A stretch of DNA of 64,000 bases from a virus. The position numbers and the translations under genes were made by a program. Of this stretch, positions 26,725-43,429 are shown piece after piece. Positions within the stretch are counted from its first letter, which is position 1. Each line of letters begins with the position of its first letter. The stretch lies in IMG/VR virus record IMGVR_UViG_3300033984_000473, positions 91,393-155,392 of that record. The stretch is one strand, 5' to 3'. The notes under the pieces were generated by a model that ran no database searches, was not told the DNA's origin, and worked only from the letters and a program-made list of their open reading frames with translations.

Positions 26725-26995
26725 ATTTTAATTGTTTGGATTGTAATTTTAAGATTTCTTCGTTACATATTTCTTTGAAGGCTGCCGCTACTATTGTATC
26801 TTCAACACCAAATAATTTGTTCAATAAATTGTACACGTTGTAGTTATTAACTTCACACTTTTCCTCATAACTAAAAATACTAAAGCTTCTATATCCATTG
26901 GAAATGTCATCAGTAAATGGATATATCCTATAAACTTTATAATGCTTGCGAATATAAACCTTCACAAGCATTACGTTATGTTTTACAATGTCCAT
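26699..26995 (-). CDS. hypothetical protein (98 aa)
   Basis: ORF in gene train. Confidence 0.45.
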   Translation of the reverse strand: MDIVKHNVMLVKVYIRKHYKVYRIYPFTDDISNGYRSFSIFSYEEKCEVNNYNVYNLLNKLFGVEDTIVAAAFKEICNEEILKLQSKQLKFDYEGDSI

Positions 26996-27879
26996 TAGTT
27001 CATCTCATTGTATGCTAAATTTACTCTAGCATTTTGTCTTAATTTCTTAAGTGATTTTTCTTTGATTTGACGAGCCATCTCACGTGTGATGCCAACTTCA
27101 TCACCAATCTCTTTCAAGGTCATTGGTATCGCCCCATTCAACCCAAACAACGCTTCCATTACACGTTTATCTCTTGGTTTCAATATATCTAGACTAGCCG
27201 CAATCTCTGATTGGACATCTTGTTGATATAATAAATGGTCAGTAGCCTTATATGTTGAATCATCAGAGATTAAATCTGATAACATAGACCCAGAACCACC
27301 ATCATCAGTTCCAATAGTACGGTCCATTGAGTCCATGTTGTATGTATTCAAGACATCCAAGAACATAAAGTCCTCACTAGATATCTCGTTTCCAAACTCA
27401 CTTATCACTTCGTTGATGTCAACACTACGACCAGCTTTTTGTTCCAATTCTTGGATGTACTTATCCAACTTAGACAAGTTATTAACCTTGTTTGCTGGAA
27501 TACGAACCAACTTACCATATTTGGTAATGTGTTCCATAATGATTTTTCTAACCCACCATACAGCATATGAAATGAATTTGTAGCCCATGTCTGGTGTGAA
27601 CTTTTCAGCCGCCAATACCAACCCAATGTTACCTTCGTTAACCAAGTCTTCCAAGTGAACATTTTCTGTAGCATATTGCTTAGCAACCGATACTACGAAA
27701 CGTAGATTTCTACGTACCAATTCATCGATAGCCTTTCTATCGCCTTTACTAGCCTTTTCAGTACATATCTTTTCTTCTTCTGGTGTGAACATAGGAATAC
27801 ATGAAATGTCTTTCAAATACTGTTTAAACGATTCATTTTCCGTGTTCGTGTACTTCTGTGCAATTTTAAATTGTCTCAT
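26995..27879 (-). CDS. sigma-70 family RNA polymerase sigma factor
   Basis: Region 2 (NLRFVVSVAKQY...GNIGLVLAAEKF...YAVWWVRKII) and region 4 HTH (TLKEIGDEVGITREMARQIKEKSLKKLR). Confidence 0.85.
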   Translation of the reverse strand: MRQFKIAQKYTNTENESFKQYLKDISCIPMFTPEEEKICTEKASKGDRKAIDELVRRNLRFVVSVAKQYATENVHLEDLVNEGNIGLVLAAEKFTPDMGYKFISYAVWWVRKIIMEHITKYGKLVRIPANKVNNLSKLDKYIQELEQKAGRSVDINEVISEFGNEISSEDFMFLDVLNTYNMDSMDRTIGTDDGGSGSMLSDLISDDSTYKATDHLLYQQDVQSEIAASLDILKPRDKRVMEALFGLNGAIPMTLKEIGDEVGITREMARQIKEKSLKKLRQNARVNLAYNEMN

Positions 27880-27914
27880 AAAAAATTTTGGGGTTTAGTT
27901 GTTTATTGTTAAGT

Positions 27915-27949
27915 GCAAAGGTAGGAATAATATTACATATATCCTAATT
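27915..27949 (-). promoter_or_regulatory. promoter (-33 TTAG / -7 TACCTTTG) for the sigma factor gene
   Basis: Conserved element agtgcaaaggtaggaataatattacatatatcctaatt. Confidence 0.6.
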
Positions 27950-28391
27950 AATCTAAGTTTCTTTCAACTTCTCTTTTTAAGTCTTTCTCTTTCAAACTGT
28001 TGCGTTTGTCGTATAGGTGCTTACCTTTGGCAAGACCAATTTCCACTTTAATGAATCCAGTGTTCGATAGTATAATCTCTAAAGGTACAATAGTCAAGCC
28101 TTTTTGTGAAATACTTTCACGTAATTTGATTATTTCTTTCTTCTTCATAAGAAGTTTTCTATCCCTTAGTGGTTGATGGTTATAGTATTTACCACCTTCT
28201 TTGTGTTCAGTTACGTGCATTCCTTTGATGAAGATTTCATCATTGGTAATAAAACAATAGGCTTCTACTATAGAAACCTTGCTTGATTTTATTGATTTAA
28301 CCTCGGAACCTTGTAATTGAATACCAGCTATGTGCTTTTCGAGTATAATGTATTCAAAATATGCTCGTTTGTTTTTAGTTATTGATTTCAT
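27948..28391 (-). CDS. smpB: SsrA-binding protein SmpB
   Basis: RAYFEYIILEKHIAGIQLQGSEVKSIK...VEAYCFI...KLLMKKKEI...KGLTIVPLEI, typical SmpB sequence. Confidence 0.8.
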   Translation of the reverse strand: MKSITKNKRAYFEYIILEKHIAGIQLQGSEVKSIKSSKVSIVEAYCFITNDEIFIKGMHVTEHKEGGKYYNHQPLRDRKLLMKKKEIIKLRESISQKGLTIVPLEIILSNTGFIKVEIGLAKGKHLYDKRNSLKEKDLKREVERNLD

Positions 28392-28395
28392 TGTA

Positions 28396-28428
28396 CAAAG
28401 GTACGATTAAATTAGTTAATATCCTAGA
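28396..28428 (-). promoter_or_regulatory. promoter for smpB, leaderless type
   Basis: tgtacaaaggtacgattaaattagttaatatcctag; ATG 3 nt after the -7 box. Confidence 0.55.
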
Positions 28429-29119
28429 GTTTTTTCGCTATCGGTATGTTTTTTTCTATTACTAGATACTCACCACTAGTACCTATGGTATCTATAGCAA
28501 TGATTTTATCAGTGATTACTATGTTTTCTTGTGTAGTATGCCCTATTACATATGTAATATCATCAATAGTATCAGCAAATAGCGATGGAATACGTACCCA
28601 TATAGGTGATTGGGTAACATCGTTACCTGTTTGACTCATATTTGGACCGTATGCAAAGCAAAATGAGTCTAAATCAGTAGTAAATTTATCATTTATTTCC
28701 TTTTCTAGGTCATTTGTTTTGATTCCATTGCGTAAACACCATGTTTTTGTTACTCCAGCATGTGTAAAAACATATTTATCATGTTGAAAACACATTTGGA
28801 CTAGTCCAGAATCTATTGCTGGTTGTAAAACTGTGTTAATATCTAATGCTCTGTATGTATTATGACCAGAATATTTCTCTCCAGCACCTTTTAAATAGTG
28901 AAAATCATGGTTACCAAGAAGTAAAACTACTTGTTCCATGTTATTTTTCTTAAATTCTAAGATTTTTGTGAAGTTTTCTATCTGTTGGTCAGTAGTAATA
29001 TCATAATGAGTATCAAAATAGTCACCTATGAAGATAATTTTATCAGCATCCTTATTTTTTTTCACGATTTCTTCCCATAATACACGACCATGTGTATCAC
29101 CTAGTGCTACTATCTTCAT
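28424..29119 (-). CDS. Ser/Thr protein phosphatase-like metallophosphatase (lambda PPase-like)
   Basis: GDTHGR, GDYFD, GNHDFH metal-binding motifs. Confidence 0.8.
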   Translation of the reverse strand: MKIVALGDTHGRVLWEEIVKKNKDADKIIFIGDYFDTHYDITTDQQIENFTKILEFKKNNMEQVVLLLGNHDFHYLKGAGEKYSGHNTYRALDINTVLQPAIDSGLVQMCFQHDKYVFTHAGVTKTWCLRNGIKTNDLEKEINDKFTTDLDSFCFAYGPNMSQTGNDVTQSPIWVRIPSLFADTIDDITYVIGHTTQENIVITDKIIAIDTIGTSGEYLVIEKNIPIAKKL

Positions 29120-29136
29120 ATTCTATTCTTTTTATG

Positions 29137-29235
29137 TACATAGCGAGGGAATCGAACCCCCATCTCCGCAAGCGATTGGTACTGCATCTCACGATGTGCT
29201 CCCATTTCGGCACTCTACCACTGAGCTAGCTACAT
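29137..29235 (-). tRNA. tRNA-like gene, 99 nt, with an expanded central region
   Basis: Minus-strand read: acceptor ATGTAGC/GCTATGT (2 G-U pairs), D-arm GCTC-AGTGGTA-GAGT, T-arm GGGGG-TTCGATT-CCCTC. There are 50 nt between the D- and T-arms, containing GTGC..GCAC and CATC-GTGA-GATG hairpins. No canonical anticodon arm found by eye. Confidence 0.5.
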
Positions 29236-29342
29236 ATTCGGTTATACTATATGGTGGTCTATCACCTTAGCCTTTCGCTAAAACTGTTAATGTGTGCCTC
29301 ACTGGACTACTCAACCAATGTCGCTTTAATAGTATAACCTAG

Positions 29343-29413
29343 AAACTCATACTGGATTCGAACCAGTGTCTGCGGGCTCCACGCCCCCCGTGGTTCCACT
29401 CCACTAATGAATC
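29343..29413 (-). tRNA. tRNA, 71 nt, possibly Pro (UGG)
   Basis: Acceptor GATTCAT/ATGAGTT, D-arm GTGG-AGTGGAA-CCAC, T-arm ACTGG-TTCGAAT-CCAGT. Anticodon stem GGGGG/CCCGC has one mismatch; loop CGTGGAG. Confidence 0.6.
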
Positions 29414-29510
29414 AACTATCACCATGTCGCTCGGCAAAGCTAAACGTAATAGAAAGGATTATAACCGTCTGAAAGTTTGCCGACCTTCATGTTGCTATTC
29501 CCCAATTTTG

Positions 29511-29610
29511 TGCGAGAGGGTGGATTCGAACCACCGACACCTAGTCCCTAGTTGTTCCCTTGTACTTTGGGCTAAAGACCTTAGCGTTTACCAACTTCGC
29601 CACTCTCGCA
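29511..29610 (-). tRNA. tRNA-like gene, ~100 nt (type-II-like length)
   Basis: Perfect acceptor GCGAGAG/CTCTCGC, T-arm GGTGG-TTCGAAT-CCACC, 3-bp D-stem. The ~48-nt central region has no obvious 5-7-5 anticodon arm. Confidence 0.5.
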
Positions 29611-29722
29611 GTTTCTAGTCTTTCCCAGTGTCAACCATTGCAGTATGAAGAGTGCACATCGTCATTGCCAATTACCATAGTTTGTATACAGTGACCATAG
29701 GGCTTAACCGTTGGATTTCTTG

Positions 29723-29796
29723 TGGAAGTAACGGGACTCTAACCCGTGTTCTCGCAGCTACAGCCGCTTTATACTATACTATTGTACTATACTCCC
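29723..29796 (-). tRNA. tRNA-like gene, 74 nt, G3-U70 acceptor, anticodon arm replaced by a 5-bp stem plus tetraloop
   Basis: Acceptor GGGAGTA/TACTTCC (G3.U70), D-arm GTAC-AATAGTATA-GTAT, T-arm ACGGG-TTAGAGT-CCCGT. Central region GCGGC-TGTA-GCTGC; no 7-nt anticodon loop possible. Confidence 0.5.
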
Positions 29797-30034
29797 ATTT
29801 GATTACTACCAGCAACGAGTAACATATATCCGAATCATTAGCATCACGGAGCGTCTTTCTTTGTTACCCTACTCTCGGTGTCGCTAACGCCTCATGTCAA
29901 GTAGTAATCTTCGTCTTTCCGAATTGTCAAGATATTTTCAGACACATTGTCCAAGACTGCTTCTCAATCAGCTAAGCACCTTATACGTCAGAGGATTACG
30001 CTTAGATTTACCTCTCGAACAGGCTTCGTGGTTA

Positions 30035-30232
30035 GAACAGGAATCGAACCTGTGTGTAATTATAGTCGCTTAGTCGACACCATTTGACTGGGACATAAGG
30101 TTTTATTATTATTACGACTTTTATTGGGTTGATGAATGTTACACCTGTTTACACGACTTGTCCACTAACTCATCTCATCGGCAACCCATTACTTAACCTT
30201 GTTAATTAGCAATTCCATTCTGCCATCTAACC
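30035..30232 (-). ncRNA. candidate structured RNA with tRNA-like termini (~200 nt)
   Basis: 3' end has T-arm ACAGG-TTCGATT-CCTGT plus TCTAACC. The complementary GGTTAGA, followed by a D-arm-like GCAG-AATGGAA-TTGC, lies ~180 nt upstream. Could be an intron-containing or otherwise atypical tRNA. Confidence 0.3.
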
Positions 30233-30421
30233 ATTTGGGTGCTACCTTTAGCATCGGTCAACACACCCTCATGTTATTTTTGTTTCTGTATTAGGCTAGG
30301 AAACTCCTTTCTTTGGAAATAAGCCGTACTTTAATATGGTTTAACTTTTAACACCTCTATTTTGCAACCAGTTTCATAACTATCCAAACTGTTCTCCATA
30401 GTGGAGTACCAAAGCGACTTG

Positions 30422-30575
30422 TGGTAAGGATGGGACTCGAACCCACAATCTCTGGCTTATGACCACCAGCGAATACTTTTCTTTCTAATGCTAGGAACCT
30501 TGTTATCGGGTTACGTACCCCTCAAATTAAAAACTAAAATTTCAAACAAAAGAACTTCCAATCATTCTTCCTTAC
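30422..30575 (-). ncRNA. candidate structured RNA with tRNA-like termini (~150 nt)
   Basis: T-arm GTGGG-TTCGAGT-CCCAT plus CCTTACC at the 3' end; 6/7 complementary 5' strand with a D-arm-like AGAA..TTCT hairpin near 30540-30575; hairpin CTGG-N10-CCAG precedes the T-arm. Confidence 0.3.
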
Positions 30576-30749
30576 GAACGGTTTTGTTTAAGAACTTTTC
30601 CTCATAGCACCATGACAATTCATGGGTATTAAAACCGCCAAACTGGGGGTTAGCTATAAGTAAAAGCCATGTGATTAATTAGGACACCATTTCTGGGATA
30701 TCATTCTACTTTCTTTCAACCACATATTTAACTTAGTAGATAAGGCAAG

Positions 30750-30840
30750 ATTTGAACTTGCACCGCCAAGCTAGCCACGCTCGGATTGAGTGTTTAACGA
30801 GCTATCCCCAATTGCTCCAAGCCGTTATGTGTCTACTAAT
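30750..30840 (-). ncRNA. tRNA-like T-arm element; termini unresolved
   Basis: Perfect T-arm GCAAG-TTCAAAT-CTTGC on the minus strand; adjacent GCTCG-N14-CGAGC hairpin; acceptor pairing imperfect. Confidence 0.3.
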
Positions 30841-31235
30841 TTAAGATTCTCCCAGAACCACCACTTCTAATGAAGTCAGCTTAGCTTTTCCACCACTTAT
30901 CTAATTCTTGTCACCTATACAAATCGGTGAGTAGCGTACATGCACGAGAATGGAAGCATCTGCTCATCTCTTTAGGAACTTGTACTCCCTACTATTTACG
31001 GCATAGTTGCCAGTGCTACCTCTTAATTAACATACGTCATTTGTATTTGACTAATAGTGGATAGACATACCAAGTCTAATTGGTTTTGATTACACTCTCA
31101 GCCGCTAAGCTTTGTGTCACTTGCCAGACCTTACTGGCATTATTAGTGGTCCCACTATCTGTTAACCTCGAACAAAAAAAATCATCATGTGCAGAATCCC
31201 ACTGCAAGTGCCAGTTCATAAACTGACTAAATTAG

Positions 31236-31329
31236 CGTGGAGAAGAGAGGATTCGAACCTCTACAAGCCGCTAAGCTATCAGCCATGACCTTCCTTGGGA
31301 CTCGAACCCAACTTCCATCCAAAGCTTCT
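31236..31329 (-). tRNA. tRNA-like gene, 94 nt, with two T-arm-like hairpins
   Basis: Perfect acceptor GGAGAAG/CTTCTCC and T-arm AGAGG-TTCGAAT-CCTCT; an internal second hairpin TTGGG-TTCGAGT-CCCAA. Shares the motif agccgctaagct with a copy near 31100. Confidence 0.5.
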
Positions 31330-31517
31330 CCAGTAATTACACATCCATCAAGATTGGGATTCCGAAGTAAGTAACTTAATCCTACCAGTTAATCATACTC
31401 AACAACCATATTACTTCTTGTAGTAAACGCAATTTCTATACTAGCTTGCACAAAATCTAGTTATTTAACGTGCTTTATAGAATCTACTTGTTTGTCTTTC
31501 TATGCGTAATTATAATA

Positions 31518-31550
31518 CAAAGGTACTACCTTTTTATTTGATATGCAAGT
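31518..31550 (-). promoter_or_regulatory. promoter (-33 CTTG / -7 TACCTTTG) for the SPFH gene
   Basis: Conserved element aatacaaaggtactacctttttatttgatatgcaag. Confidence 0.55.
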
Positions 31551-31559
31551 TTTTTGCAA

Positions 31560-32411
31560 TTAATTTCTATTCAAAAGAATATTTGATGAAGAACCGAATA
31601 CGTTGTTTGAACCGTATGGTGATTTACCCTTTTCTGCCCAAATTCTTTCAGTTTCTGCTCTATATAATTCTAACAACTTAGGTTGTGATAAAATCTCTTT
31701 CGTTTTAGCATCGTAGATAGCCGCTTCATAGTTACCTTTAGCCAAAGCTACTTTCTTCAAAGCTGTTTGTTCTGCTTGTACAGTTTGTGATTTAATCGTA
31801 GCCGTTTCTTGCAATACCGCAATCTTTCTTTCAATCGCTTGTTTATAAGATGGTGGCAATGCCATTTTCAAGATAGCAATATTGGTCAAGGTGAAACCTT
31901 CTTTCTCCAAAGATGCTGATAATGTTTTAGTTACATTTGCTTCATAAACATTTCTATGTTGTAATAAGCTATCAGATGCAAACATAGTAGCGTTGTCTAA
32001 TAATTCTTTTCTAACAATTGTTCTAACTCTCGTATTAATTAAATCTTCCATCCCAACTCTATACTTGATGAATAAATCAGATGCTTTTGCTCTCTGTAAT
32101 TGTAAGTTAACCGCTACATCTAATCCGAATGTTGCTCCATCTGCTGATGTTACATCAATATGTTCATCTGTTGGTGAATCTTCATCTACTGCTGATGTCC
32201 AAACCTTGTGTTGAACTGATGTTGGATACATAAACACGTCTTGTGTTGGTGGGAAATAAAAGATAAAACCAGAAGCCATTTCAATATTCGGAACCCCTTT
32301 GTCATTCCCAATCTGGTCAACGACCAATGCAACTTCTGCTGAGTCTGCTGTTGTACACGATGTAACACTCATTAATAATACCAACGATAATAATCCTAAT
32401 AGTTTTTTCAT
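31560..32411 (-). CDS. SPFH/band-7 domain lipoprotein
   Basis: Signal peptide with lipobox (LLMSVTSC); SPFH-like IAILKMALPPSYKQAIERKIAVLQETA...ALKKVALAKGNYEAAIYDAKTKE. Confidence 0.65.
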   Translation of the reverse strand: MKKLLGLLSLVLLMSVTSCTTADSAEVALVVDQIGNDKGVPNIEMASGFIFYFPPTQDVFMYPTSVQHKVWTSAVDEDSPTDEHIDVTSADGATFGLDVAVNLQLQRAKASDLFIKYRVGMEDLINTRVRTIVRKELLDNATMFASDSLLQHRNVYEANVTKTLSASLEKEGFTLTNIAILKMALPPSYKQAIERKIAVLQETATIKSQTVQAEQTALKKVALAKGNYEAAIYDAKTKEILSQPKLLELYRAETERIWAEKGKSPYGSNNVFGSSSNILLNRN

Positions 32412-32412
32412 T

Positions 32413-32652
32413 TTACTTTTTTGTTTTTGTTTTTGTTTTTAAATTTAGTTTGAAATTTGTGAATACTTTTGTTTTAATGATAACAATCACTAACGTTACC
32501 AATCCGATAATTCCAGTAATGTTTAGTAATGTATTTGCTTTGCTTATTAATGGTAGCAAATTCATAATAGCGATTAAGCTTAGAAATATACCTAACGGTA
32601 TCGTGTAATAGTTTTTCATATTGTTTGTTTTTATTATAATACAAAGGTACAA
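32413..32652 (-). CDS. small membrane protein (79 aa)
   Basis: Two hydrophobic helices; KTKTKTKK tail. Confidence 0.4.
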   Translation of the reverse strand: MYLCIIIKTNNMKNYYTIPLGIFLSLIAIMNLLPLISKANTLLNITGIIGLVTLVIVIIKTKVFTNFKLNLKTKTKTKK

Positions 32653-32664
32653 CCTTTTTTTTTA

Positions 32665-33711
32665 TTATGCAAGTATTTTTTCTAAAATTTCTTCTTTTTT
32701 ATAATCTTTTTCTAAAGACTTGGCAAAGAATACTTTATCAGTAGTCATACCTTCTGTTAATTCAGCTAATTCTATGTTACCATCTAGTATTTCTAGACGT
32801 TTTGCGTAGGATGGGCCAGTTATTTCCCTAACGAACTTCATTCTAGACGGTCTATTCTTGATTGAATCATCGATTTTTTCGATATCATTACATGACATAA
32901 CGAACAAAACCTTGTTATACTCATTGTAAACTCCATCTAAGATACTTAATATAACGTCAAACGTAAATTTTACTTCATTATTCTTCATCAAACATGTTCT
33001 TTTATCGAAATAGTTATCAAAATCTTCAAATAATACGATACAATTCTCTGGTACATCGTTAAACATCACCAATATATCCAAGTTATTATACTCTGGGTTA
33101 AGATAAATCGAATATATCGGTAAATTATACTTAAGAGAGAAGTATTTTACTAGTCTAGTCTTACCAGTTCCAGGAACACCATGTAATAAAGCACTTGTTT
33201 TACCACCGTTTTTTAGCATATTGACAACATCATTCTCTATATCACTATATTGTTCGTTATCTATATACACTTTAGGTACTTCTCTAGTATATATCTGCCC
33301 TAACTTATCTGACCCCCATGGTGTCAACGCCATAACATTGACATGTTCCTCGTTGTTGACTATAGAGTGTATGAATTTCTCTACCTTATCTCTATGCCAT
33401 CTTAAAAAATATAGCTCAGATATGATTTCTTTGGACTGCCAACCAGCTGTAAGCAAACGCTCACTTCTAGAAAACAAAACTGGAATACCATTTACGATAG
33501 CAAAAGCCGAATAAGTAGATGGGTATTTTTTGTTAACAGTAATCTCGTTAACCAACTCAAACTTATATTTCGCACCTTTAACCAATGGTATTATCAACTT
33601 GCTCAAATTGTTATCAAGTCTTGTATTTTGTGACACAAGATATTTCATTGCAGCCCAAATAGAAACCAATACACTTAATAAAACTCCAAATATTCCTAAT
33701 AATCCTGTCAT
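32665..33711 (-). CDS. membrane-anchored AAA+ ATPase
   Basis: N-terminal TM helix; Walker A LHGVPGTGKT; Walker B VLFEDFD; NRPSR sensor-like. Confidence 0.75.
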   Translation of the reverse strand: MTGLLGIFGVLLSVLVSIWAAMKYLVSQNTRLDNNLSKLIIPLVKGAKYKFELVNEITVNKKYPSTYSAFAIVNGIPVLFSRSERLLTAGWQSKEIISELYFLRWHRDKVEKFIHSIVNNEEHVNVMALTPWGSDKLGQIYTREVPKVYIDNEQYSDIENDVVNMLKNGGKTSALLHGVPGTGKTRLVKYFSLKYNLPIYSIYLNPEYNNLDILVMFNDVPENCIVLFEDFDNYFDKRTCLMKNNEVKFTFDVILSILDGVYNEYNKVLFVMSCNDIEKIDDSIKNRPSRMKFVREITGPSYAKRLEILDGNIELAELTEGMTTDKVFFAKSLEKDYKKEEILEKILA

Positions 33712-33712
33712 A

Positions 33713-33943
33713 TTAGCATCTTAATGTTACTCCATCACTATCTTTACTCGGAAACGATGGTGCTGAATGTGTTTGGTTTAATTCTAATTGATGTTCTGGA
33801 CCACCCATGCTTGGGTCAATCTCATGCTTGAATACAAGATTCAAGTGTCTTTTAATCATTTCGGTTTCCACCTTCCCAATTTGAACTGGGTCTGAAACTT
33901 CGAAGTATCCTTGAAGCCAGAATGCAAAATCTCTGCTTGTCAT
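33713..33943 (-). CDS. hypothetical protein (76 aa)
   Basis: ORF in gene train. Confidence 0.45.
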   Translation of the reverse strand: MTSRDFAFWLQGYFEVSDPVQIGKVETEMIKRHLNLVFKHEIDPSMGGPEHQLELNQTHSAPSFPSKDSDGVTLRC

Positions 33944-34056
33944 AGTTATTGTTTTATATAGTTTTCATTTGAATCCAACACATACTCAATTAGAGTACCG
34001 CTATTTTTAATAATAAAGTTGGTTTTCTAGCGTATGGTCCTAAGTTATGTGCAAGG

Positions 34057-35512: not shown

Positions 35513-36169
35513 TTATTCTGTTTTAGTTAATTCGATTTCTAAAGGCAAATTGCTCATTACATAGTCTAAGTTCAATACACTAGCATTCATAAACACACCG
35601 CCATCTGGGAAATCAACTCTACCATAAGCTTCATGTATGTGTCCGTGAACAAACAAAGCAAGGTTTGTCATTTCTGTTATTTTTTCTAACAAATAAGGAC
35701 AACCTGTTGATGTTCCTCTTTTGGTTAAGTCCAAATAACCTTTGGCTGGACCATGTGTAATAAGAATATTGGTATCCAATGGAATCATATCCCAGTGAGC
35801 ACAAATTTCAGTACCCTTACGATTAAATGCCCATGAATAGAACCATGGCTGAACTGGACTTCCCCAAATCTTAAACCCTTCAATCTCAACACCACTATCA
35901 TTCAAGTAGATGATGTTAGGGTATTTCGCTAACATAGCTTCTATCTCATACTCTGGTGCTTGCTCAAAGAAGAAATCGTGATTACCAGCAATAAGAATCT
36001 TGTACTTATATGGTAACTCATTATACCATGCTAAGAAAACTTCTATCTCTTGTTTGGTACCTCTACCAGAAACATCACCCGCATGGATTATACAATCACC
36101 CCCAGTCAAATACTTACTAGGGATGTGTTCGTGTTTTGAATGCGTATCGCTGATACATGTAATATTCAT
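35513..36169 (-). CDS. metallophosphoesterase (calcineurin-like, YfcE-type)
   Basis: ISDTHSKH, HAGDVSGRG, AGNHD motifs. Confidence 0.8.
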   Translation of the reverse strand: MNITCISDTHSKHEHIPSKYLTGGDCIIHAGDVSGRGTKQEIEVFLAWYNELPYKYKILIAGNHDFFFEQAPEYEIEAMLAKYPNIIYLNDSGVEIEGFKIWGSPVQPWFYSWAFNRKGTEICAHWDMIPLDTNILITHGPAKGYLDLTKRGTSTGCPYLLEKITEMTNLALFVHGHIHEAYGRVDFPDGGVFMNASVLNLDYVMSNLPLEIELTKTE

Positions 36170-37581
36170 TATGAAAAGTTTTCACTATTAGTGTTATCTT
36201 CCCATGAACCACCAGCACCGCCACCACTGAATCCACCACCACCAAATCCATCAGTAAATCTTGGGTCTTGACCCTCATTAAACCCTTGGTCATCGTTATT
36301 TAACATATCACCCAAAGCAGCACCTAAAACATCACCACCTATAGCTGTTCCTATAAGGCTTGAATCTGTGATGTAACCAATCACCATTGATTCAATGAAA
36401 GAATCATCTTGAGTTGGGTATTGTCTTCTCAAATCTCTACGTGCTTTATCCTTAAGTTCGTTGTCAAGTTTTTCTCTACGTTTAAATTCAGCTTCTCTTA
36501 AAGCCATACGTTGATTGGTATCTGGAACAATGTTGTGTTTATGTTGCACCTCTGGGTACAACTCAGTGTAACTCATATCAACTGCCTTATAGTTTTTCGT
36601 ACTACCAGTATCTTCTCTATGGTTCATGTATTGTTTAACATACTCATCATTATCAGTCACATATAAACCATTGGCATCTTTCTCAGTGATTCCTTTAGCA
36701 ATCGGTGTGAAGTCTTGAATACGTTTCAAGTATTGACGCTTAGTGACATCACCATGCCAAATGTGATATAAGTCACCTTTAACATAACCTAATCTTTGTC
36801 CAACAACTCGTCTGAATTGTTCTGACCATTCGTTAACAGCATCAATATCATCGGTAAATGATTTTGTAATACATGAGTGACCGATTTGTCCAGCAGCAGC
36901 ATGTGCCATGATATGGTCTGCACCACCGATAAGAGCTTTGTCATATAATGGCATAGCATCTACAACACTTCGTCTAGCACCCCATGCAAATCCTACGTGA
37001 CCATGACGGTCATAGTTAGAATCACTAGAGTAATCGGTTGTTGCGTAGTTGGCACCAAAGCTTCTCCACAACTTAGGATTTCTAAGTGATGGTGTTGCAA
37101 CATCTCGTCTTTCAAACTCAACGTCAAAGTCTGGTTCAGTTTGGTCTTGGTCCAAGTGAACACAATATTCAAACAATTGAACCATTCTATTGTTTTTTGG
37201 TTGCAATTGCTCAACAGCATCAACCATCCAATTAAAGTTTGTGAATTTTACATCGGCATCAATCCAAAATACATATTTGAATTCTCTAGGTAAGTTTTTC
37301 ATTACACCATTTAACAAAGCTTCTTTATGCCAAAGAGTTGTATTTGTAGATACTCTTGTAATAAACTCAGTCAAAGGTAATTGTGGTTCTGAATCACCAA
37401 TAACACATTCCACGATTCTGTGGTTAAGGTGTTTGATTGATTCATAGAAGGTATTGAAGGCTGATAACCTATAAGGATTGTTTGTTGGGTTGTAGTAACA
37501 CGCAACGATTACAGCTTCTGGATGCGATTTGTATCTGTTAGGATAGAAAAAAAGATTGTAGAGTTTCTCTAAAAATTTCAT
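36169..37581 (-). CDS. putative nucleotide-sugar glycosyltransferase (GT-A-like), Gly-rich C-terminal tail
   Basis: Rossmann-like N-terminus VIVACYYNP..., DxD-like FWIDADVKF; start moved to MKFLEKL past the promoter. Confidence 0.4.
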   Translation of the reverse strand: MKFLEKLYNLFFYPNRYKSHPEAVIVACYYNPTNNPYRLSAFNTFYESIKHLNHRIVECVIGDSEPQLPLTEFITRVSTNTTLWHKEALLNGVMKNLPREFKYVFWIDADVKFTNFNWMVDAVEQLQPKNNRMVQLFEYCVHLDQDQTEPDFDVEFERRDVATPSLRNPKLWRSFGANYATTDYSSDSNYDRHGHVGFAWGARRSVVDAMPLYDKALIGGADHIMAHAAAGQIGHSCITKSFTDDIDAVNEWSEQFRRVVGQRLGYVKGDLYHIWHGDVTKRQYLKRIQDFTPIAKGITEKDANGLYVTDNDEYVKQYMNHREDTGSTKNYKAVDMSYTELYPEVQHKHNIVPDTNQRMALREAEFKRREKLDNELKDKARRDLRRQYPTQDDSFIESMVIGYITDSSLIGTAIGGDVLGAALGDMLNNDDQGFNEGQDPRFTDGFGGGGFSGGGAGGSWEDNTNSENFS

Positions 37582-37634
37582 TTGTTTTATTTTAAGTTCA
37601 TACAAAGGTACTACTAATATTTTAAATAAACAAA

Positions 37635-38411: not shown

Positions 38412-38459
38412 TGGTTAAATCTTTTCACCAATATAACTCATACTAAAATAAAATAAAGA

Positions 38460-40379
38460 TTATAGATTGATTAATGATAAATTAATGTTCTTTTTCTCAA
38501 TATCTACACTAGATACAACCACATGAACCATATCACCAAGTCTTAATTTAGAACCAGTATTGTATCCTTTTACACAGTAATTAGCCATGTCAGCCGAATA
38601 AACATCACCACCAATATCAGACAATTTGATAAGTCCTTCACACTTGTTTTCCAGGATTTCAACAAACACACCATACTCAGTAACCGAACTAATGATACCT
38701 TCAAACACTTTACCAATGTTATCACTCATGTAAATACATTGCATGTACTTGATTGAATCTCTTTCAGCTTTTTGTGCTTTCTTTTCTCTCTCAGATAAGT
38801 GAAGACATCTAGTTTCAAGCTTCTCTAACTTAGGCATAGTTGTTTTGTTCTCATCCAAATACAAACCTAACAACCTATGAACGATTACATCTGGGTAACG
38901 TCTGATTGGACTTGTAAAGTGTGAGTAGTCTTTAAACCCAAGACCATAGTGACCAATGTTTTTGGTTGTATAGTTTGCTTTCTGCATAGTTCTAACTACC
39001 AGATTATCAATCATATCCGACTCAGCAGTACCTCTTGAATCAACTAGCAACTGGTTAAGTGTTTTTGTTGTTTCTTCTGGGCTAGTTGTTCTAATCTCAT
39101 AACCGAATTGTTTAATGAACTCTTTAAGACTATCTAACTTAGTTTCGTTAGGTTTGTCGTGAGCTCTGTTAACATTTGGCAGTGCTCTTTTGTTAATGTA
39201 TTGAGCAACGTGTCTGTTAGCCAATAACATATATTCCTCGATAAGCTTGTTAGCATCTTTGGCAACCTTGAAGATGATACCTGTTGGTTTGTTGTTCTCG
39301 TCTAACTTGAACTTAACTTCTTGTTTATCAAAAGATATAGAACCCTTAGACAAACGAACCTTACGCATTTTTTGTGCTACTCTATTCAAATGTAAAACAG
39401 CGTACTCCAATTTACTAACTACTTTATCAGTACCACCTTTTGTTTCAATTATTGTTTGAGCTTCTTCATAAGTAAGTCTACAATCAGAGTTGATTACAGT
39501 TCTACCAAACCATTCTTCTAACACATGTCCATTATGGTCCATTTTAAAGACAGCTGAGAAGCAAAGCTTATCTTCGTTAGGTCTTAACGAACATAGTCCG
39601 TTAGATAAGTTCTCTGGAAGCATAGGGACACATCTATCTACTAGGTAGACACTTGTTCCTCTAGCATACGCTTCTTTGTCTAATTCGGTATCTGGTCGTA
39701 AGTAATGTGATACATCGGCAATGTGAACACCCAAAAACAATTCACCGTTTACCCATTCAACACTCAAAGCATCATCAAAATCTTTTGCATCAGCTGGGTC
39801 GATGGTAAATGTAAGTACATCACGCATATCTCTACGCTTATCAATTTCAGCTTGTGTAATCTCCGTTGATATTGCTCTGGCTTCTGCCAACACATCTTCT
39901 TCAAAGTCGTATGGTAAACCATATTCTTCAAGGATGCTATGGATTTCAGTTTCATGTTCACCAGAATTACCTAGAATTCTAATTACTTCACCATTAGGGT
40001 TCTTTGCGTTGTCTTTCCATTCAGTTAACTTAACAATAACCTTTTGACCTTCAGTCGCATTCATTGTTTTATTTAAAGGAACAAAGAAATCAATTGGAAG
40101 CTTGCTGCTATCTGGTACAAAGAAAGCAAACTTTTCACTCAATTGGAGTACACCAACGAATTCGGTTCTGAATCTCTCTACGATTTCAACAACTTCACCT
40201 TCTAAAGCTCTACCATTTCCAGTAATAACTTTTATTTTTACAGTATCTAAGTGTAACGCTTTGTTGGTGTTACTTTTGCTTAGATAAATGTCTTTTGGTA
40301 AATCTTGACTTACCAAGTAAGCGGAGCCGCTAGCATTCATGCTAACTTTTCCTTCTAATATATCATCTATTTTAATCAT
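38460..40379 (-). CDS. rnr: RNase R / RNase II family 3'-5' exoribonuclease
   Basis: RNB-domain signatures GTSVYLVDRCVPMLPE, LCSLRPNEDKLCFS, HYGLGFKDYSHFTSPIRRYPDVIVHR; C-terminal S1-like domain. Confidence 0.85.
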   Translation of the reverse strand: MIKIDDILEGKVSMNASGSAYLVSQDLPKDIYLSKSNTNKALHLDTVKIKVITGNGRALEGEVVEIVERFRTEFVGVLQLSEKFAFFVPDSSKLPIDFFVPLNKTMNATEGQKVIVKLTEWKDNAKNPNGEVIRILGNSGEHETEIHSILEEYGLPYDFEEDVLAEARAISTEITQAEIDKRRDMRDVLTFTIDPADAKDFDDALSVEWVNGELFLGVHIADVSHYLRPDTELDKEAYARGTSVYLVDRCVPMLPENLSNGLCSLRPNEDKLCFSAVFKMDHNGHVLEEWFGRTVINSDCRLTYEEAQTIIETKGGTDKVVSKLEYAVLHLNRVAQKMRKVRLSKGSISFDKQEVKFKLDENNKPTGIIFKVAKDANKLIEEYMLLANRHVAQYINKRALPNVNRAHDKPNETKLDSLKEFIKQFGYEIRTTSPEETTKTLNQLLVDSRGTAESDMIDNLVVRTMQKANYTTKNIGHYGLGFKDYSHFTSPIRRYPDVIVHRLLGLYLDENKTTMPKLEKLETRCLHLSEREKKAQKAERDSIKYMQCIYMSDNIGKVFEGIISSVTEYGVFVEILENKCEGLIKLSDIGGDVYSADMANYCVKGYNTGSKLRLGDMVHVVVSSVDIEKKNINLSLINL

Positions 40380-40386
40380 TCAATTT

Positions 40387-40908
40387 TTAGTATTTTATGA
40401 ACTGTTCAATCAGTTCATTATATTTTTTTTCATCATTTTGTATCTTACCATAATACAACTTTGTCATCGGTTCGTATTCTTTTTGTTTCACTTTCAGATT
40501 TAATTGTTGTGTTTGCCACCATGGATAAATATCTCGATTAAAGTGATAAAACATCATACACGCATATCTATCTGCAATTATTTCTTCCTCGAAAATGTGT
40601 TCAGTAAACTCTGTAAAGTCTTCAAAAGACAATTTTCGTAATATCTCACTTCTACCAAACTTAGTAATCCTTTTAAAATGAGCAACTTCGTGAACTATTA
40701 TAAAGAAAACCAGCTTATCACTATATTTGTCAATCAATTCAATATTCAAATATATACAATCCAGAGTGGCAATACCCAAAGGACCATTTAAACATCTGTC
40801 TTTAAAAGTTATACCACTATTTTCAATAAAGGTTACTAAATCGTTAAAATTTAATTTCCCATGCCTTGCTTTCAACGCTGTTATTATTGTTTCATCTATC
40901 ATACACAA
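40387..40908 (-). CDS. putative zinc metallopeptidase-like protein (HExxH)
   Basis: IIVHEVAHFKR motif. Confidence 0.45.
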   Translation of the reverse strand: MCMIDETIITALKARHGKLNFNDLVTFIENSGITFKDRCLNGPLGIATLDCIYLNIELIDKYSDKLVFFIIVHEVAHFKRITKFGRSEILRKLSFEDFTEFTEHIFEEEIIADRYACMMFYHFNRDIYPWWQTQQLNLKVKQKEYEPMTKLYYGKIQNDEKKYNELIEQFIKY

Positions 40909-40970
40909 AGATACTACAATTATTTGTTTATTGCAATAAAAAAACCCACTAAATTTAGCGGGCCTCTATC

Positions 40971-41486
40971 TTAATGCCTATCAGCTGGCACTACATTTAT
41001 CTTGAAAGTTTTAATTCTTCCGCTTGAAATTAGCTTATCACCAAATGCTTTGAATATTGGAATATGTTCCAATCTATCATCCCATAGTTCAATCTCAGTA
41101 ACCTGTGGGTACTTATGTAGTAAAGATTCAATTGTTTTCATCTTAGCCACTTCTGTTGCACCACCTCTGTTGAAATGGTATTCATCAAACTCTAGGTTTT
41201 TGCTATCTAAGATTTCTTTAACTAGGTCAGTAAGTAGAACCATACGACCAGTAAGCATAACCATAACAGTTGATTGGTCTTGTTTTTCTACATTGTAAGC
41301 ATCAATGACCATTGGTACACTTGGCATGTCAAATATTTTCATATCTAAGCTTAGTGGTCTACCCCACCATCCTGGAAAAGGCCAATCTCTACCTGTCTGT
41401 TCTTTGTAATGTTTCTTACCAAATTCTGGTAATGGTGTATCAACCAGTGTTCCGTCAAAATCGAATATCGATAATTTTGTTTTCAT
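40971..41486 (-). CDS. HAD-superfamily hydrolase
   Basis: Motif I SIFDFDGTLVD. Confidence 0.6.
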   Translation of the reverse strand: MKTKLSIFDFDGTLVDTPLPEFGKKHYKEQTGRDWPFPGWWGRPLSLDMKIFDMPSVPMVIDAYNVEKQDQSTVMVMLTGRMVLLTDLVKEILDSKNLEFDEYHFNRGGATEVAKMKTIESLLHKYPQVTEIELWDDRLEHIPIFKAFGDKLISSGRIKTFKINVVPADRH

Positions 41487-41491
41487 AGTTT

Positions 41492-41872
41492 TTAATTTAT
41501 GACCAACAATCCGATTGTGATTACTATAAAAATCATTCCTAGTATGAATGACCCTTTATTTATTTTCACATAATCCTGTTGGTCTGTGGTTCCATTGGCC
41601 AATAGTGACCCGTGTATTCTTTTTGTTGCTGAACCAATCAGTACTGCTGTTATCGGTCCATGTGCGTTAATAGTTTGTTTTAAAGCACCGTTTATTCTTT
41701 TCGTTTCATATATCTTTTCCTTTCTCAATTTCTCGATTGAATCCAAGTTATTTTTCTCATAGTCATCTACTAACGTAAGAATGGTTTCTAGATTTGGTTT
41801 GGTTTTATCTAATTCAATTTGAATCTTGCTACCTAATTTTCCTCGTCTAGTTTTTAATATGTTAAATTTCAT
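41492..41872 (-). CDS. hypothetical protein with C-terminal TM helix (126 aa)
   Basis: ORF in gene train. Confidence 0.45.
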   Translation of the reverse strand: MKFNILKTRRGKLGSKIQIELDKTKPNLETILTLVDDYEKNNLDSIEKLRKEKIYETKRINGALKQTINAHGPITAVLIGSATKRIHGSLLANGTTDQQDYVKINKGSFILGMIFIVITIGLLVIN

Positions 41873-41895
41873 TTTTCATTTCGTTTACAAAGGTA

Positions 41896-42375
41896 TTAAT
41901 TATTTTTGAATAATCCTAATATTCTATAATAAATATTCTCTATAACTTCAATAATTTTATTTTTTATCTTTTCATACATAGTTTCTTGTTTGTATTGAAA
42001 ATCCATATAAAACAATTGACCAACTGGTGCTGACATAGGCTGAACTGGTACCAAATCCATGGCTATGGTTTGTGCGAACACTCTTCGAACCATTGGAAAC
42101 GCTACGTTTTCAAATAAATTTTCAAGGGTTTGCCAGAAGAATTCTAAATCAATATCTGGTTTTATTTTGGTAGACCAAAGATGTATATAAAGCTTAGCTT
42201 CTTCTTCTTCAATGTTAAATACAGTGATTAACTCATTGGTTAGCTTGGTGCCGCAATGTGGTGTTTTAAATTTCCTATCATCGGAAAATGAGTATATTCC
42301 ATCGTTACCAACTTCGCTAGTATCAACGTAATAATTTTTTGACAAATAATCGTATATGAGTTTTTCCATATACAA
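41896..42375 (-). CDS. hypothetical protein (159 aa)
   Basis: ORF in gene train. Confidence 0.5.
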   Translation of the reverse strand: MYMEKLIYDYLSKNYYVDTSEVGNDGIYSFSDDRKFKTPHCGTKLTNELITVFNIEEEEAKLYIHLWSTKIKPDIDLEFFWQTLENLFENVAFPMVRRVFAQTIAMDLVPVQPMSAPVGQLFYMDFQYKQETMYEKIKNKIIEVIENIYYRILGLFKNN

Positions 42376-42405
42376 TTATAGTCATAATAAAAATAAGTGT
42401 CAAGG

Positions 42406-42900
42406 TTATTTAACAACTTTCGGCTTGATTACCGCAAACATTTTTTTACCTTCTAACTTAGGCATAGCTTCTGCTGACCCAAATTCTTCAACAGCAACAA
42501 TCATTTTAAGTATTTGTTGTTGACCAATATCAATATGTTGCATTTGACGACCTCTAAACTGAAGGCTAATCTTAACCCTGTGACCTTTTTTAAGGAACTC
42601 AACCATGTGTTTGATTCGGTATTCCAAATCATTATCGGTTGTGTTTGGTCCAAGCTTGATTTCTTTTACATCTAATCCTTTGTTCTTAGGCTTTTTGCTT
42701 AATTCGTATATGAACTTTTCATAGTTCATTATCTTACAAATTACTGGAACTGTCTTATCGTTGATAAGAACCAAATCCATGTTTCTAGACTCAGCGATTT
42801 GTAAGGCTGCTGATAACGCCATAACACCACCTTCTTCAGCGACACGCACTTCTTTTGCGATGATTTCTGAATTAAGCTTATGCTGTTTCTTTTTGTTCAT
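42406..42900 (-). CDS. infC: translation initiation factor IF-3
   Basis: N-domain IAKEVRVAEEGGVMALSAALQIAESRNMDLVLI; C-domain KEIKLGPNTTDNDLEYRIKHMVEFLKKGHRVKISLQFRGRQMQHIDIGQQQL. Confidence 0.8.
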   Translation of the reverse strand: MNKKKQHKLNSEIIAKEVRVAEEGGVMALSAALQIAESRNMDLVLINDKTVPVICKIMNYEKFIYELSKKPKNKGLDVKEIKLGPNTTDNDLEYRIKHMVEFLKKGHRVKISLQFRGRQMQHIDIGQQQILKMIVAVEEFGSAEAMPKLEGKKMFAVIKPKVVK

Positions 42901-43429
42901 TTACTATTTTTTTAATCAATTCTAATTCTAATTGTTTTATGAAATTTTCATCGGTAATTCTACTTAAGTTGTTTGACCAACCTATTTTATGTTTAAGGTT
43001 TTCATTATAGGTAACTGGTTGAAACCATACAACATGCTTGCCTTGAAATTCGCCTGGGTTATCTCGTTCTGATTCATTTGGATTGTATAATTTGTATTTA
43101 TAATATCTTATAGAATCTAACATTACATGGTCAAGTGCATCAATGATATAGATGGGCCCTACTGAAACATCAACATAAGCATATCTAGCCATCAAAAAAG
43201 ATTGTGTACCATCCAGACTTAAACTTAACTTACCATTAAACACATTCTCAATGCTATAAAAAACTACATCGATTTCAGAATCTGGGTTATTGGCTTTGAT
43301 TTTTCTTACATGAGTTTCAATATTAGTATCCAAGTCAGCAAAGTTTTTAAGACCTCTTGAATTAACGTACTTAAGTTCATCATTTTGAAAAAAAATTGGA
43401 AACGTACTATTGTGAATCTTTGTTAACAT
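42878..43429 (-). CDS. hypothetical protein (183 aa)
   Basis: ORF in gene train. Confidence 0.5.
   Translation of the reverse strand: MLTKIHNSTFPIFFQNDELKYVNSRGLKNFADLDTNIETHVRKIKANNPDSEIDVVFYSIENVFNGKLSLSLDGTQSFLMARYAYVDVSVGPIYIIDALDHVMLDSIRYYKYKLYNPNESERDNPGEFQGKHVVWFQPVTYNENLKHKIGWSNNLSRITDENFIKQLELELIKKIVNEQKETA

Follow-up and report, generated by a model that had tools for sequence, protein, structure and literature searches.

Genes for transcription and translation factors of the bacterial type have been described in several groups of very large bacteriophages. Huge phages encoding IF1, IF3, S21, transfer-messenger RNA (tmRNA), SmpB and sigma-70 were reported by Al-Shayeb et al. 2020 (PMC7162821), and RpoD-like sigmas were found in all 'group 2' jumbo phages, with IF-3 in a few members of group 2.2, by Iyer et al. 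2021 (PMC7824862). The supplement of a study on freshwater bS21 phages (Chen et al. 2022, PMC9723584) lists an SsrA-binding protein and sigma-A among the genes of the clade; the main text of that paper makes no mention of IF-3, SmpB, RNase R or sigma. The present work concerns a 64,000-nucleotide stretch of viral DNA (positions 91,393 to 155,392 of the IMG/VR record IMGVR_UViG_3300033984_000473; hereafter, the window), in which genes for a sigma-70 family factor, SmpB, RNase R and the initiation factor IF-3 are all located on the minus strand inside 16 kb.

When 50,697 phage records were searched with tblastn, the number of records with a match was 101 for IF-3, 67 for SmpB and 42 for RNase R, some of these records being host contamination. 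The original prediction, an earlier reading of this DNA made from its letters and open reading frames (ORFs), had called phage-encoded IF-3 and SmpB rare, which is fair in view of these counts, but the novelty that it implied was overstated, since such genes are described in the publications cited above (in the case of PMC9723584, in its supplement). The matches to IF-3 included Escherichia phages of 350-380 kb, other jumbo-sized phages and phages of 595-735 kb, those to SmpB included Lak phages, and those to RNase R included two phages of 635-642 kb. None of the four genes is new to phages, and a toolkit of this kind is already documented in huge phages.

The huge phages (PMC7162821) likewise carry IF-3 (LR756501/03/04/11), SmpB (LR756501/03/04 and the Lak phages), sigma-70 and RNase R (LR756502, LR745206), and interception of host translation and ribosome rescue were predicted for them too. 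Several are thought to infect Bacteroidota, like the phage of the window. However, the identity between their proteins and those of the window is 31-49%, they often carry a tmRNA whereas none was found in the window, and in the clade described here, whose genomes are half as large, the four genes are confined to 16 kb and keep a constant order. The 'group 2.2' jumbo phages, represented by the Escherichia phages of 350-380 kb (PMC7824862), resemble the window phage in having a two-domain IF-3 and in being T4-like (gp23-type), and their IF-3 was suggested to support phage translation or ribosome rescue. They differ in that the IF-3 proteins share ~35% identity and in that the host of the window phage belongs to another phylum, one that initiates translation without Shine-Dalgarno pairing. 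The freshwater bS21 phages (PMC9723584) have genomes of 293-331 kb with a GC content of 31-34%, come from lake metagenomes and have Bacteroidetes hosts, as is the case here, although that study had a different topic, namely bS21 and late expression.

Identity, gene order and selection of the four genes

We propose that the four genes are part of a conserved, strongly selected set that probably supplements or replaces host factors at several points of gene expression, and that the region is, on balance, best read as a set for maintaining and taking over translation. This analysis settled the identity, conservation and selection of the genes as well as their promoter types and start codons, and the activity of each product and its effect on the host are predictions. 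Profile searches bore out the original prediction for all four genes, and none of the ORFs was reassigned to another family (Table 1). SmpB, RNase R and IF-3 passed NCBIfam equivalog cut-offs. SmpB scored 175.3 bits against TIGR00086 (cut-off 119.1) and 178 bits against NF003843 (cut-off 130), RNase R scored 695.7 bits against TIGR02063 (cut-off 597.85, model positions 68-711), with RNase II models giving 210-240 bits and staying under their cut-offs, and IF-3 scored 145.6 bits against TIGR00168 (cut-off 60).

The alignments agreed with these assignments. The C-terminal tail of SmpB is intact (GKHLYDKR followed by ~17 amino acids), and this basic tail, GKHLYDKRNSLKEKDLKREVERNLD, which includes the GK..DKR motif and is of the type required in trans-translation, aligned with the tails of solved SmpB chains. 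Among PDB chains, the phage RNase R best matched the B. subtilis enzyme, over residues 70-708 of 779; it keeps the catalytic aspartates (DPADAKDFDD) and also has the motif HFTSPIRRYPD. IF-3 could be aligned end to end with the E. coli and Geobacillus proteins. The sigma factor, which has regions 1.2, 2, 3 and 4 in order, aligned over its full length with the NCBIfam RpoD_Cterm and RpoS models (RpoD_Cterm positions 1-230 of 238). Region 3 was not called by Pfam; the alignment to RpoD_Cterm and to solved sigma-A chains runs through it. Its scores were below every NCBIfam equivalog cut-off (RpoD, RpoS, RpoH and others; the best was 203.9 bits against 378.7) and set it apart, at the level of sequence, as a distinct phage lineage.

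Related contigs, designated here by L followed by a number, were collected through IF-3 and SmpB searches of IMG/VR and exact-protein look-ups. The gene order NDT, IF3, g159, g126, HAD, (g173), RNase R, g258, g491, PDE, ..., phosphoesterase, SmpB, sigma was conserved: more than 25 contigs, viral or metagenomic, from different samples and as long as 368 kb, share it. Amino acid identity across the clade was 52-79% for IF-3, 51-84% for SmpB, 49-67% for sigma and 67-81% for RNase R, the best conserved of the four. In comparisons with the closest relative, L128, in which dS was 0.25-0.56, dN/dS was 0.025 for sigma, 0.023 for SmpB, 0.025 for IF-3 and 0.076 for RNase R. The neighbouring genes tested that have an unrelated or unassigned function gave 0.16 (g491) and 0.21 (HAD), and two metallophosphoesterases gave 0.07 and 0.09; the lower dN/dS of the toolkit genes holds against g491 and HAD, and the two metallophosphoesterases are as low as RNase R. 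The conserved gene order and the low dN/dS indicated that the gene set is no chance assortment. By these measures, the toolkit genes are functional and have long been resident in the lineage.

Almost all ORFs of the window are read from the minus strand, and its GC content is even (30-38%). A megablast search of the 16 kb against the 50,697 phage records gave zero matches; the phage is uncultivated and known from metagenome contigs only. Freshwater metagenomes contain exact copies of its IF-3, the contigs reaching 0.2-1 Mb, and the relative L129, which has the same module, is an NCBI assembly of 331,044 bp. A Bacteroidota host is indicated because the promoters match the -33 TTTG / -7 TAHHTTTG consensus and Bacteroidota sigma-A is the closest counterpart of the sigma factor, in line with the host that the original prediction had implied from the -7 box. 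Size, GC content, habitat and predicted host agree with those of the freshwater bS21 phages of Bacteroidetes, whose GC content is 31-33.7% (PMC9723584), and the window phage is very probably a member or a near relative of that group. A bS21-like motif was absent from the 64 kb in a simple motif scan. The window would correspond to the early/middle region of a freshwater jumbo phage of ~200-370 kb infecting Bacteroidota.

Table 1. Location of the genes, promoter boxes and RNAs discussed in the text (positions in the window).
Feature	Position	Strand	Details
Sigma-70 family factor, Bacteroidota sigma-A type	26995..27879	-	294 aa; Pfam r1.2, r2, r4
-7 box TACCTTTG of the sigma gene	27916..27923	-	36-nt leader
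SmpB	27948..28391	-	147 aa; Pfam E=1.5e-52, positions 1-141 of 143
-7 box TACCTTTG of SmpB	28396..28403	-	4 nt upstream of ATG
Calcineurin-like metallophosphoesterase	28424..29119	-	Pfam Metallophos 5.7e-12; PHROG NinI-like 3.9e-9
Eight tRNA-like RNA genes and one ~250-nt structured RNA domain	29137..31331	-	ORF-free
Structured RNA, ~440 nt	30734..31175	-	5' domain of ~250 nt and 170-nt tRNA-like 3' domain (30734-30904)
Second metallophosphoesterase, MPPED2-like	35513-36169	-	mammalian MPPED2 E=6e-41
RNase R	38460..40379	-	639 aa; OB_RNB, CSD2, RNB, S1
HExxH protein (VHEVAHF)	40387-40902	-	171 aa; leaderless gene, directly upstream of RNase R
-7 box TATCTTTG	40906..40913	-	3 nt before ATG of the HExxH protein
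HAD-family phosphatase, 'Swiss-army-knife RNA repair' type	40971..41486	-	DFDGT; Pfam HAD_SAK_1 4.7e-15
IF-3, two domains, shortened linker	42406..42900	-	164 aa; IF3_N 7.1e-20, IF3_C 4.6e-29
Smr-domain protein	46135..46356	-	73 aa; DLHG motif; Pfam Smr 31.1 bits vs GA (gathering) 25.7
tRNA-binding-domain protein, Trbp111/CsaA type	46811..47149	-	Pfam tRNA_bind 5.4e-17
Thg1-like 3'-5' nucleotidyltransferase (tRNA 5'-end addition/repair)	50509..51279	-	Pfam Thg1 2.5e-30 and Thg1C

Promoters, the sigma factor and the initiation factor

The sequence TACCTTTG occurs 35 times on the coding strand of the window, against 0.7 expected from composition, and 5 times on the opposite strand. In the aligned sites, TT(T/A)G is found exactly 20 nt upstream, with an A-rich stretch in between. 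The promoter described for Bacteroidota/Flavobacterium consists of -33 TTTG and -7 TAHHTTTG, with the G at -5 and the start of transcription 4-5 nt later (PMC6847099). The distance from this G to the ATG is 3-5 nt, as expected for leaderless mRNAs, at 8-9 of ~115 genes, among them SmpB and the head of the RNase R unit. Leaderless genes thus amount to ~7-8% of the genes and about a quarter of the recognizable promoters, far from the half of all genes for which the original prediction had claimed a -7 box abutting the ATG; the remaining promoters have leaders of 15-40 nt. In F. johnsoniae, at most 13% of transcripts have leaders of 10 nt or less (PMC6847099). The SmpB mRNA was classed as leaderless because of the position of its -7 box, following the spacing rule of the same study, and the box TATCTTTG probably heads the transcription unit that contains RNase R. 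About a dozen of the TACCTTTG boxes (for example those at 8972, 10591, 19080, 21899 and 22373) share the initial transcribed sequence GTA(C/A)TCTAATC(A), which suggests a common element in the 5' untranslated region or recently duplicated promoter cassettes.

In BLASTP comparisons the phage sigma factor shares 38-41% identity with Bacteroidota sigma-A (206-215 bits) and is collinear with it from residue 1. A Firmicutes-type sigma-A gave 35% identity and 166 bits, and the sigma-A proteins of Firmicutes and Proteobacteria, with 33-35% identity, align from about residue 15. A genome scan was carried out with the signatures FIS[YF]AVWW and NLRFVV[ST]VA, both drawn from the phage alignment, and returned at least 600 stretches; nearly all of the best 80, with 38-42% identity, carried Bacteroidota or allied FCB labels, and three were labelled otherwise. 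The phage protein has in common with the Bacteroidota type, sigma-ABfr, a length of ~287-294 amino acids, the lack of region 1.1 and an N-terminus that reads M(R/K)Q(L/F)KI..TNRE, as described for sigma-ABfr (PMC6847099). Both also show the signatures NLRFVVSVAKQY, FISYAVWW and NLRFVVSVA, and a similar region 4.2. In contrast, region 3 of the phage protein is divergent and carries insertions, and region 2.4 reads WW(V/I)RK..(M/L)E in every phage copy versus WWIRQ..LQ in the hosts. The shared length, N-terminus, absence of region 1.1 and level of identity argue that the phage sigma descends from the primary sigma of the host phylum. On this comparison it is derived from the Bacteroidota sigma-A lineage rather than a member of that lineage.

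In the mechanism that we propose, the phage sigma would bind the host core RNA polymerase, and its host-like region 4.2 would still read -33 TTTG. The Q to K change in region 2.4 falls on the position that would contact the first base pair of the -10/-7 element, and the protein may read a modified -7 element. It would redirect the polymerase to a phage promoter class. With its single consistent change in region 2.4, a phage copy of the unusual Bacteroidota sigma-A gives direct access to the question of -7 element recognition.

The linker of the phage IF-3 is 5-7 residues shorter than that of the E. coli protein, a difference that is constant across the clade, and the N-domain hairpin is shorter in most clade members. 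Among the E. coli residues Y75, R99, R112, R116, R129, R131 and R133, which we take to be those involved in 30S binding and fidelity, Y75, R131 and R133 are kept, and R99, R116 and R129 are replaced clade-wide by G, E and Q, respectively. The gene is part of a coupled unit that has a leader, and there is a 23-nt overlap with the upstream gene. It starts with ATG, directly preceded by an in-frame TAA. Another 31 infC copies were examined in related loci; ATG is the first canonical start in 30, and the other one has TTG and then directly ATG. The infC gene starts with AUA in F. johnsoniae and with AUU in E. coli, in both cases for IF-3 autoregulation (PMC7797042), and the near-cognate start codon of the host gene is not present in the phage gene. 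Since the phage infC starts at AUG, it should escape the negative feedback that IF-3 exerts on host infC. The phage protein would then raise the total IF-3 activity and repress host infC, and it would keep 30S subunits free and tighten start-site selection. Translation initiation in Bacteroidota takes place without Shine-Dalgarno pairing, and a phage IF-3 with an AUG start, a short linker and changed 30S-contact residues is a natural probe of start-site choice in this phylum.

The gene that adjoins IF-3 at 41896-42375 (minus strand, ~157 amino acids) is kept in relatives. It includes a 45-amino-acid stretch, MVRRVFAQTIAMDLVPVQPMSAPVGQLFY, that corresponds to the N-terminal part of T4 gp23 and matches the Pfam Gp23 and PHROG 138 major capsid protein profiles. 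The product could be a capsid-protein fragment or a capsid-targeting mimic.

Putative ribosome rescue proteins and the tRNA-like RNA cluster

Together with the Smr-domain protein, which is kept in L128, L129 and L131, SmpB and RNase R make up three ribosome-rescue components. Judging from a box at 46143-46150, the Smr gene run probably belongs to the transcription unit of IF-3. In E. coli, cleavage by SmrB feeds tmRNA rescue (bioRxiv 10.1101/2021.08.16.456513), and in S. pneumoniae rnr and smpB are co-transcribed and cross-regulated (PMC3534368). The phage has the same three protein families as this bacterial pathway of SmrB, tmRNA-SmpB and RNase R, which in E. coli is the known route from collision to rescue and decay (bioRxiv 10.1101/2021.08.16.456513; PMC3949413). 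It differs from the bacterial rnr-smpB linkage in that its RNase R has neither the helix-turn-helix (HTH) nor the lysine-rich (K-rich) domain, its Smr protein is a bare domain of 73 amino acids, the genes are 10-18 kb apart rather than in an operon, and no phage tmRNA is in view. The Smr nuclease, SmpB and the RNase R core would cover the three protein steps of collision, rescue and RNA decay, with SmpB working with host tmRNA. Such a set would preserve a supply of ribosomes during the cutting of host or phage mRNAs, be it through takeover or by abortive-infection nucleases, and would also clear or recycle RNA. The presence of the three proteins together suggests that ribosome rescue is limiting during infection.

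A cluster of tRNA-like RNAs lies next to these genes. The coding strand between the phosphoesterase and the SPFH gene has no ORF of 60 amino acids or more over 2.2 kb, and the GC content is slightly up within the cluster. Only one unit is a cloverleaf, of 72 nt. Insertions of ~25-135 nt are present in all the others but one, in which a tetraloop replaces the anticodon loop. The cluster is kept in relatives at 75-98% identity and is 97-98% identical to that of L128, though at synonymous sites the flanking genes differ by dS 0.2-0.55. Four units scored 40-42 bits against the Rfam tRNA family (RF00005, gathering threshold 29), three of them in the gathering search and the fourth in an E-value search; two are 99 nt long with inserted hairpins, one is the tetraloop unit and one is the 72-nt unit with G33. 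Four more units, of 95-205 nt, keep the acceptor stem and the T arm.

The cloverleaf-size tRNA (29342-29413 on the minus strand of the window, L033:7693-7765 and L034:5471-5543) is 94% identical in the three phages. The copies differ almost only in the anticodon loop, which reads CGUGGAG, AUUUUAG and CGUUGAG (anticodons UGG, UUU and UUG), and U33 is missing in two of the three, the window copy having G33. One of the 99-nt units has an extended arm, backed by two compensatory changes, and the other has an internal GNRA hairpin (GUGA in the window, GGAA in two relatives). ARAGORN proposed that 29511-29609 is a suppressor tRNA(UUA) with a 23-nt intron. This candidate was rejected because the minimum-free-energy fold and the two compensatory changes, found in L013, point to a continuous extended arm without an anticodon loop. 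The ORFs of the window are intact under the standard code.

The tetraloop unit, 29723-29796 (minus strand, 74 nt), has the alanine-type G3:U70 pair and A73, an atypical T loop and UGUA replacing the anticodon loop. It is the only unit of the cluster with G3:U70 plus A73, and it has no coding part. Similar sequence was found in L127 (80% identity over 29920-29722), and none in the first 37 loci. The best score of the tmRNA family (RF00023) in the cluster was 10.7 bits against a gathering threshold of 47. 'Permuted tmRNA' guesses made by ARAGORN (-ps80) were discarded: their tags (for example, GNDDVHSSYCNG) are unlike known tags, and the best guess takes one half from the tRNA-like gene at 29723-29796 and the other from that at 29511-29609, with acceptor strands (GCGAGAG and UACUUCC) that lack complementarity.

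Copies of the ~440-nt structured RNA were identified at L129:13040-13471, L131:12745-13179 and L033:about 6387-6817. A conserved ORF is absent from it, and its start directly follows a TACCTTTG box in two relatives. RNAalifold analysis of six sequences, which represent only about three independent lineages, gave 115 pairs, 16 of them with compensatory changes, in a structure derived from the same alignment. None of 500 shuffles reached 16, and slid registers gave 0-4. In the 170-nt 3' domain, the acceptor stem and the T arm show covariation, and the anticodon arm looks canonical. A covariance model of this domain found full-length matches in this clade only, as well as weaker matches of 100-165 nt in the tRNA frame in other relatives. 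A 17-nt pattern search of IMG/VR returned 38 stretches, five of which are true homologues, all from this clade and one of them new (L159). No Rfam family, including tmRNA, GOLLD and ROOL, matched the ~440-nt RNA at E<=1. GOLLD and ROOL, two large ornate RNAs, occur near tRNA genes in phages and prophages. Compared with them (PMC12286853, PMC5737381), the RNA described here is similar in being a large, conserved, structured non-coding RNA located in a phage tRNA cluster and found in lake metagenomes, and it differs in its size, its tRNA-like end and the lack of an Rfam match at that threshold. A separate structured RNA, a DUF805b motif, was detected in a related phage contig (L026:14904-14937; 35.8 against an Rfam gathering threshold of 35.6).

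Because the cluster lies beside SmpB, its RNAs might be taken for a new class of phage tRNA-like RNAs, partners of SmpB, the tRNA-binding protein, Thg1 or RNase R and part of a semi-orthogonal expression and rescue channel. We consider this doubtful. Under such a reading the RNAs could be non-canonical ribosome-rescue substrates or decoys for host nucleases that target tRNA. If it were true, the RNA cluster, a feedback-escaping IF-3 and a re-specified sigma-A would together constitute a partly orthogonal channel of expression and rescue in Bacteroidota phages. The aberrant tRNA-like RNAs beside SmpB are under selection and are the least explained part of the region.

Alternative readings and neighbouring genes

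Several observations weigh against a translation-maintenance and takeover set. No tmRNA was found with Rfam (gathering threshold and E<=1) or ARAGORN (default and lowered thresholds) in the window and in the 20-kb loci of relatives, ARAGORN having been run on 37 related loci and Rfam on seven of those. The RNA partner of SmpB was assumed to be host tmRNA for this reason. RNase R is a bare core that lacks the HTH domain at its N-terminus and the K-rich domain at its C-terminus, which set RNase R apart from RNase II, and it ends with S1. The K-rich domain of E. coli RNase R mediates its tmRNA-dependent recruitment to the ribosome (PMC3949413), and a direct link between SmpB and RNase R of the E. 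coli kind is not expected here. All 35 of the 35 promoters of the window fit the host consensus, which says nothing about the target of the phage sigma. The short linker of IF-3 and the changes at R99, R116 and R129 leave its canonical behaviour an assumption. Finally, the toolkit genes do not form one operon and are interleaved with genes for GT-A-like, MPPED2-like, SPFH and AAA ATPase proteins. The gene set is a further well-supported example of very large phages carrying host transcription and translation machinery, and current understanding is unchanged unless experiments show altered specificity. The tRNA-like RNAs and the feedback-free infC are the features most worth following.

As part of translation maintenance, the RNA cluster, the HAD phosphatase, the tRNA-binding protein and the Thg1-like enzyme would serve tRNA supply and repair. 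The same genes could instead be mainly a counter-defence kit against abortive-infection stalling and the cutting of tRNA and mRNA, with IF-3 and sigma as separate takeover functions nearby; we regard this as possible but rather unlikely. The kit would consist of spare or decoy tRNA-like RNAs, end-healing enzymes (HAD, metallophosphoesterase and Thg1-like), rescue by Smr and SmpB, and clearance of debris by RNase R. Domains of the RNA-repair type are indeed present (HAD_SAK_1, Thg1 and the phosphoesterase with an RNA-ligase-associated PHROG match), but no RNA ligase was found in the window and the best candidate, g491, is GT-A glycosyltransferase-like. The cloverleaf-size tRNA, nearly identical in three phages except for its anticodon loop, varies as expected under anticodon nucleases, and the near identity of the RNA cluster to that of L128 despite the divergence of the flanking genes also favours this account. 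Stalled phage protein synthesis has been cited as a defence in Cellulophaga (PMC9723584), and IF-3 and Thg1, the latter only sporadic in jumbo phages, were classed under RNA repair and ribosome rescue in PMC7824862. However, no host defence system is known for the window phage, and the account overlaps with the explanation that we prefer.

A second alternative, which we hold to be just as tentative, is that RNase R, perhaps with the phosphoesterases, serves nucleotide scavenging, converting host rRNA, tRNA and mRNA to 5'-NMPs for phage DNA synthesis without any link to trans-translation. The absence of the K-rich domain needed in E. coli for recruitment to the ribosome is consistent with this role, as is the content of the window, which includes two nucleoside deoxyribosyltransferase-like proteins, PRPP synthetase, NAMPT, NUDIX proteins and the MPPED2-like phosphodiesterase. 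The best structural relative was solved as RNase R on 30S subunits (8cdu), in work that reportedly concerned 30S degradation. Nevertheless, scavenging leaves SmpB, Smr, IF-3 and sigma unexplained, and the conservation of RNase R, the highest of the four, fits either role.

The original prediction was that a phage IF-3 could bias initiation toward phage transcripts. To favour leaderless phage mRNAs over those of the host would take an IF-3 of altered specificity, which is improbable. Its clade-wide short linker and the substitution of three arginines that contact 30S in E. coli are compatible with altered specificity, the F. johnsoniae IF-3 is itself unusual in vitro (PMC7797042), and the leaderless genes, at about a quarter of the strong promoters, can be set against the share of F. 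johnsoniae transcripts with very short leaders given above. However, in the systems studied, IF-3 antagonises the translation of leaderless mRNAs (PMC4611024, citing Tedin 1999). Because of this antagonism, extra IF-3 of the canonical kind would disfavour leaderless phage mRNAs, and the phage protein, if canonical, would work against the leaderless early mRNAs. The leaderless genes had moreover been overcounted, more than 90% of the phage genes here not being leaderless, and the IF-3 gene itself has a leader. That the genes are host DNA, present through an assembly chimera or contamination or as functionless recent passengers, is effectively refuted: although many 'phage' database matches for these families are clearly bacterial contigs, the GC content is uniform, dense small one-strand ORFs with phage-type promoters run throughout, more than 25 independent viral contigs, which stem from different samples, show the same order, identity to cellular-type homologues (in the sigma genome scan and among contaminant bacterial contigs of the phage database) is 35-50%, and omega is 0.02-0.08.

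The remaining genes of the region include two metallophosphoesterases. For the one next to SmpB, the original prediction had proposed a lambda-PPase-like Ser/Thr phosphatase. Its place in the calcineurin-like metallophosphoesterase superfamily was retained, and a closer kinship with lambda PPase is not secure: GDTHG is present, but motif II is GDYFDT instead of GDxxDRG and motif III is GNHD instead of GNHE, and there were zero sequence matches to PDB chains, lambda PPase included, at E<=0.01. It also matches an RNA-ligase-associated PHROG family, and its match to the NinI-like PHROG is weak. The assignment stands at the superfamily level, with a protein phosphatase or an RNA/nucleotide end phosphoesterase as the candidate substrate classes. 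A protein phosphatase was rejected for the second metallophosphoesterase in view of its match to MPPED2; it is possibly a cyclic-nucleotide or 2',3'-cNMP phosphodiesterase. The HAD phosphatase also matched a PHROG polynucleotide kinase family (1.4e-6).

The product of g491 (36169-37581, minus strand, ~470 amino acids) belongs to a family that counts more than 750 metagenomic homologues and in which no member has a Pfam domain; its C-terminus is glycine-rich and disordered. It was considered as the missing RNA ligase and rejected, having no Pfam or PHROG match, a WxDADV (DxD) motif and a GT-A-like model. The AlphaFold model has a pLDDT of 74, and its Foldseek matches are consistently GT-A glycosyltransferases, at TM scores of only 0.2-0.3. 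A run of genes upstream of IF-3 (45884-47149, minus strand) encodes the tRNA-binding-domain protein, a NUDIX protein, the 73-amino-acid Smr protein and a GIY-YIG nuclease. Three close relatives share the NUDIX, Smr and GIY-YIG genes, and the tRNA-binding-domain gene was within the fetched stretch in L128 only.

At 31560-33711 (minus strand), in the middle of the toolkit and seemingly unrelated to gene expression, are genes for an SPFH/Band-7 protein that carries a signal of the lipoprotein type (LMSVTSC), for a small membrane protein and for an AAA ATPase that has a membrane segment at its N-terminus. Farther along the window, at 52089-63580 (minus strand), an NAD/nucleotide block comprises PRPP synthetase, a SIR2-family protein, the second nucleoside deoxyribosyltransferase-like protein, NAMPT, a glutamate-synthase-domain protein and a NUDIX protein.

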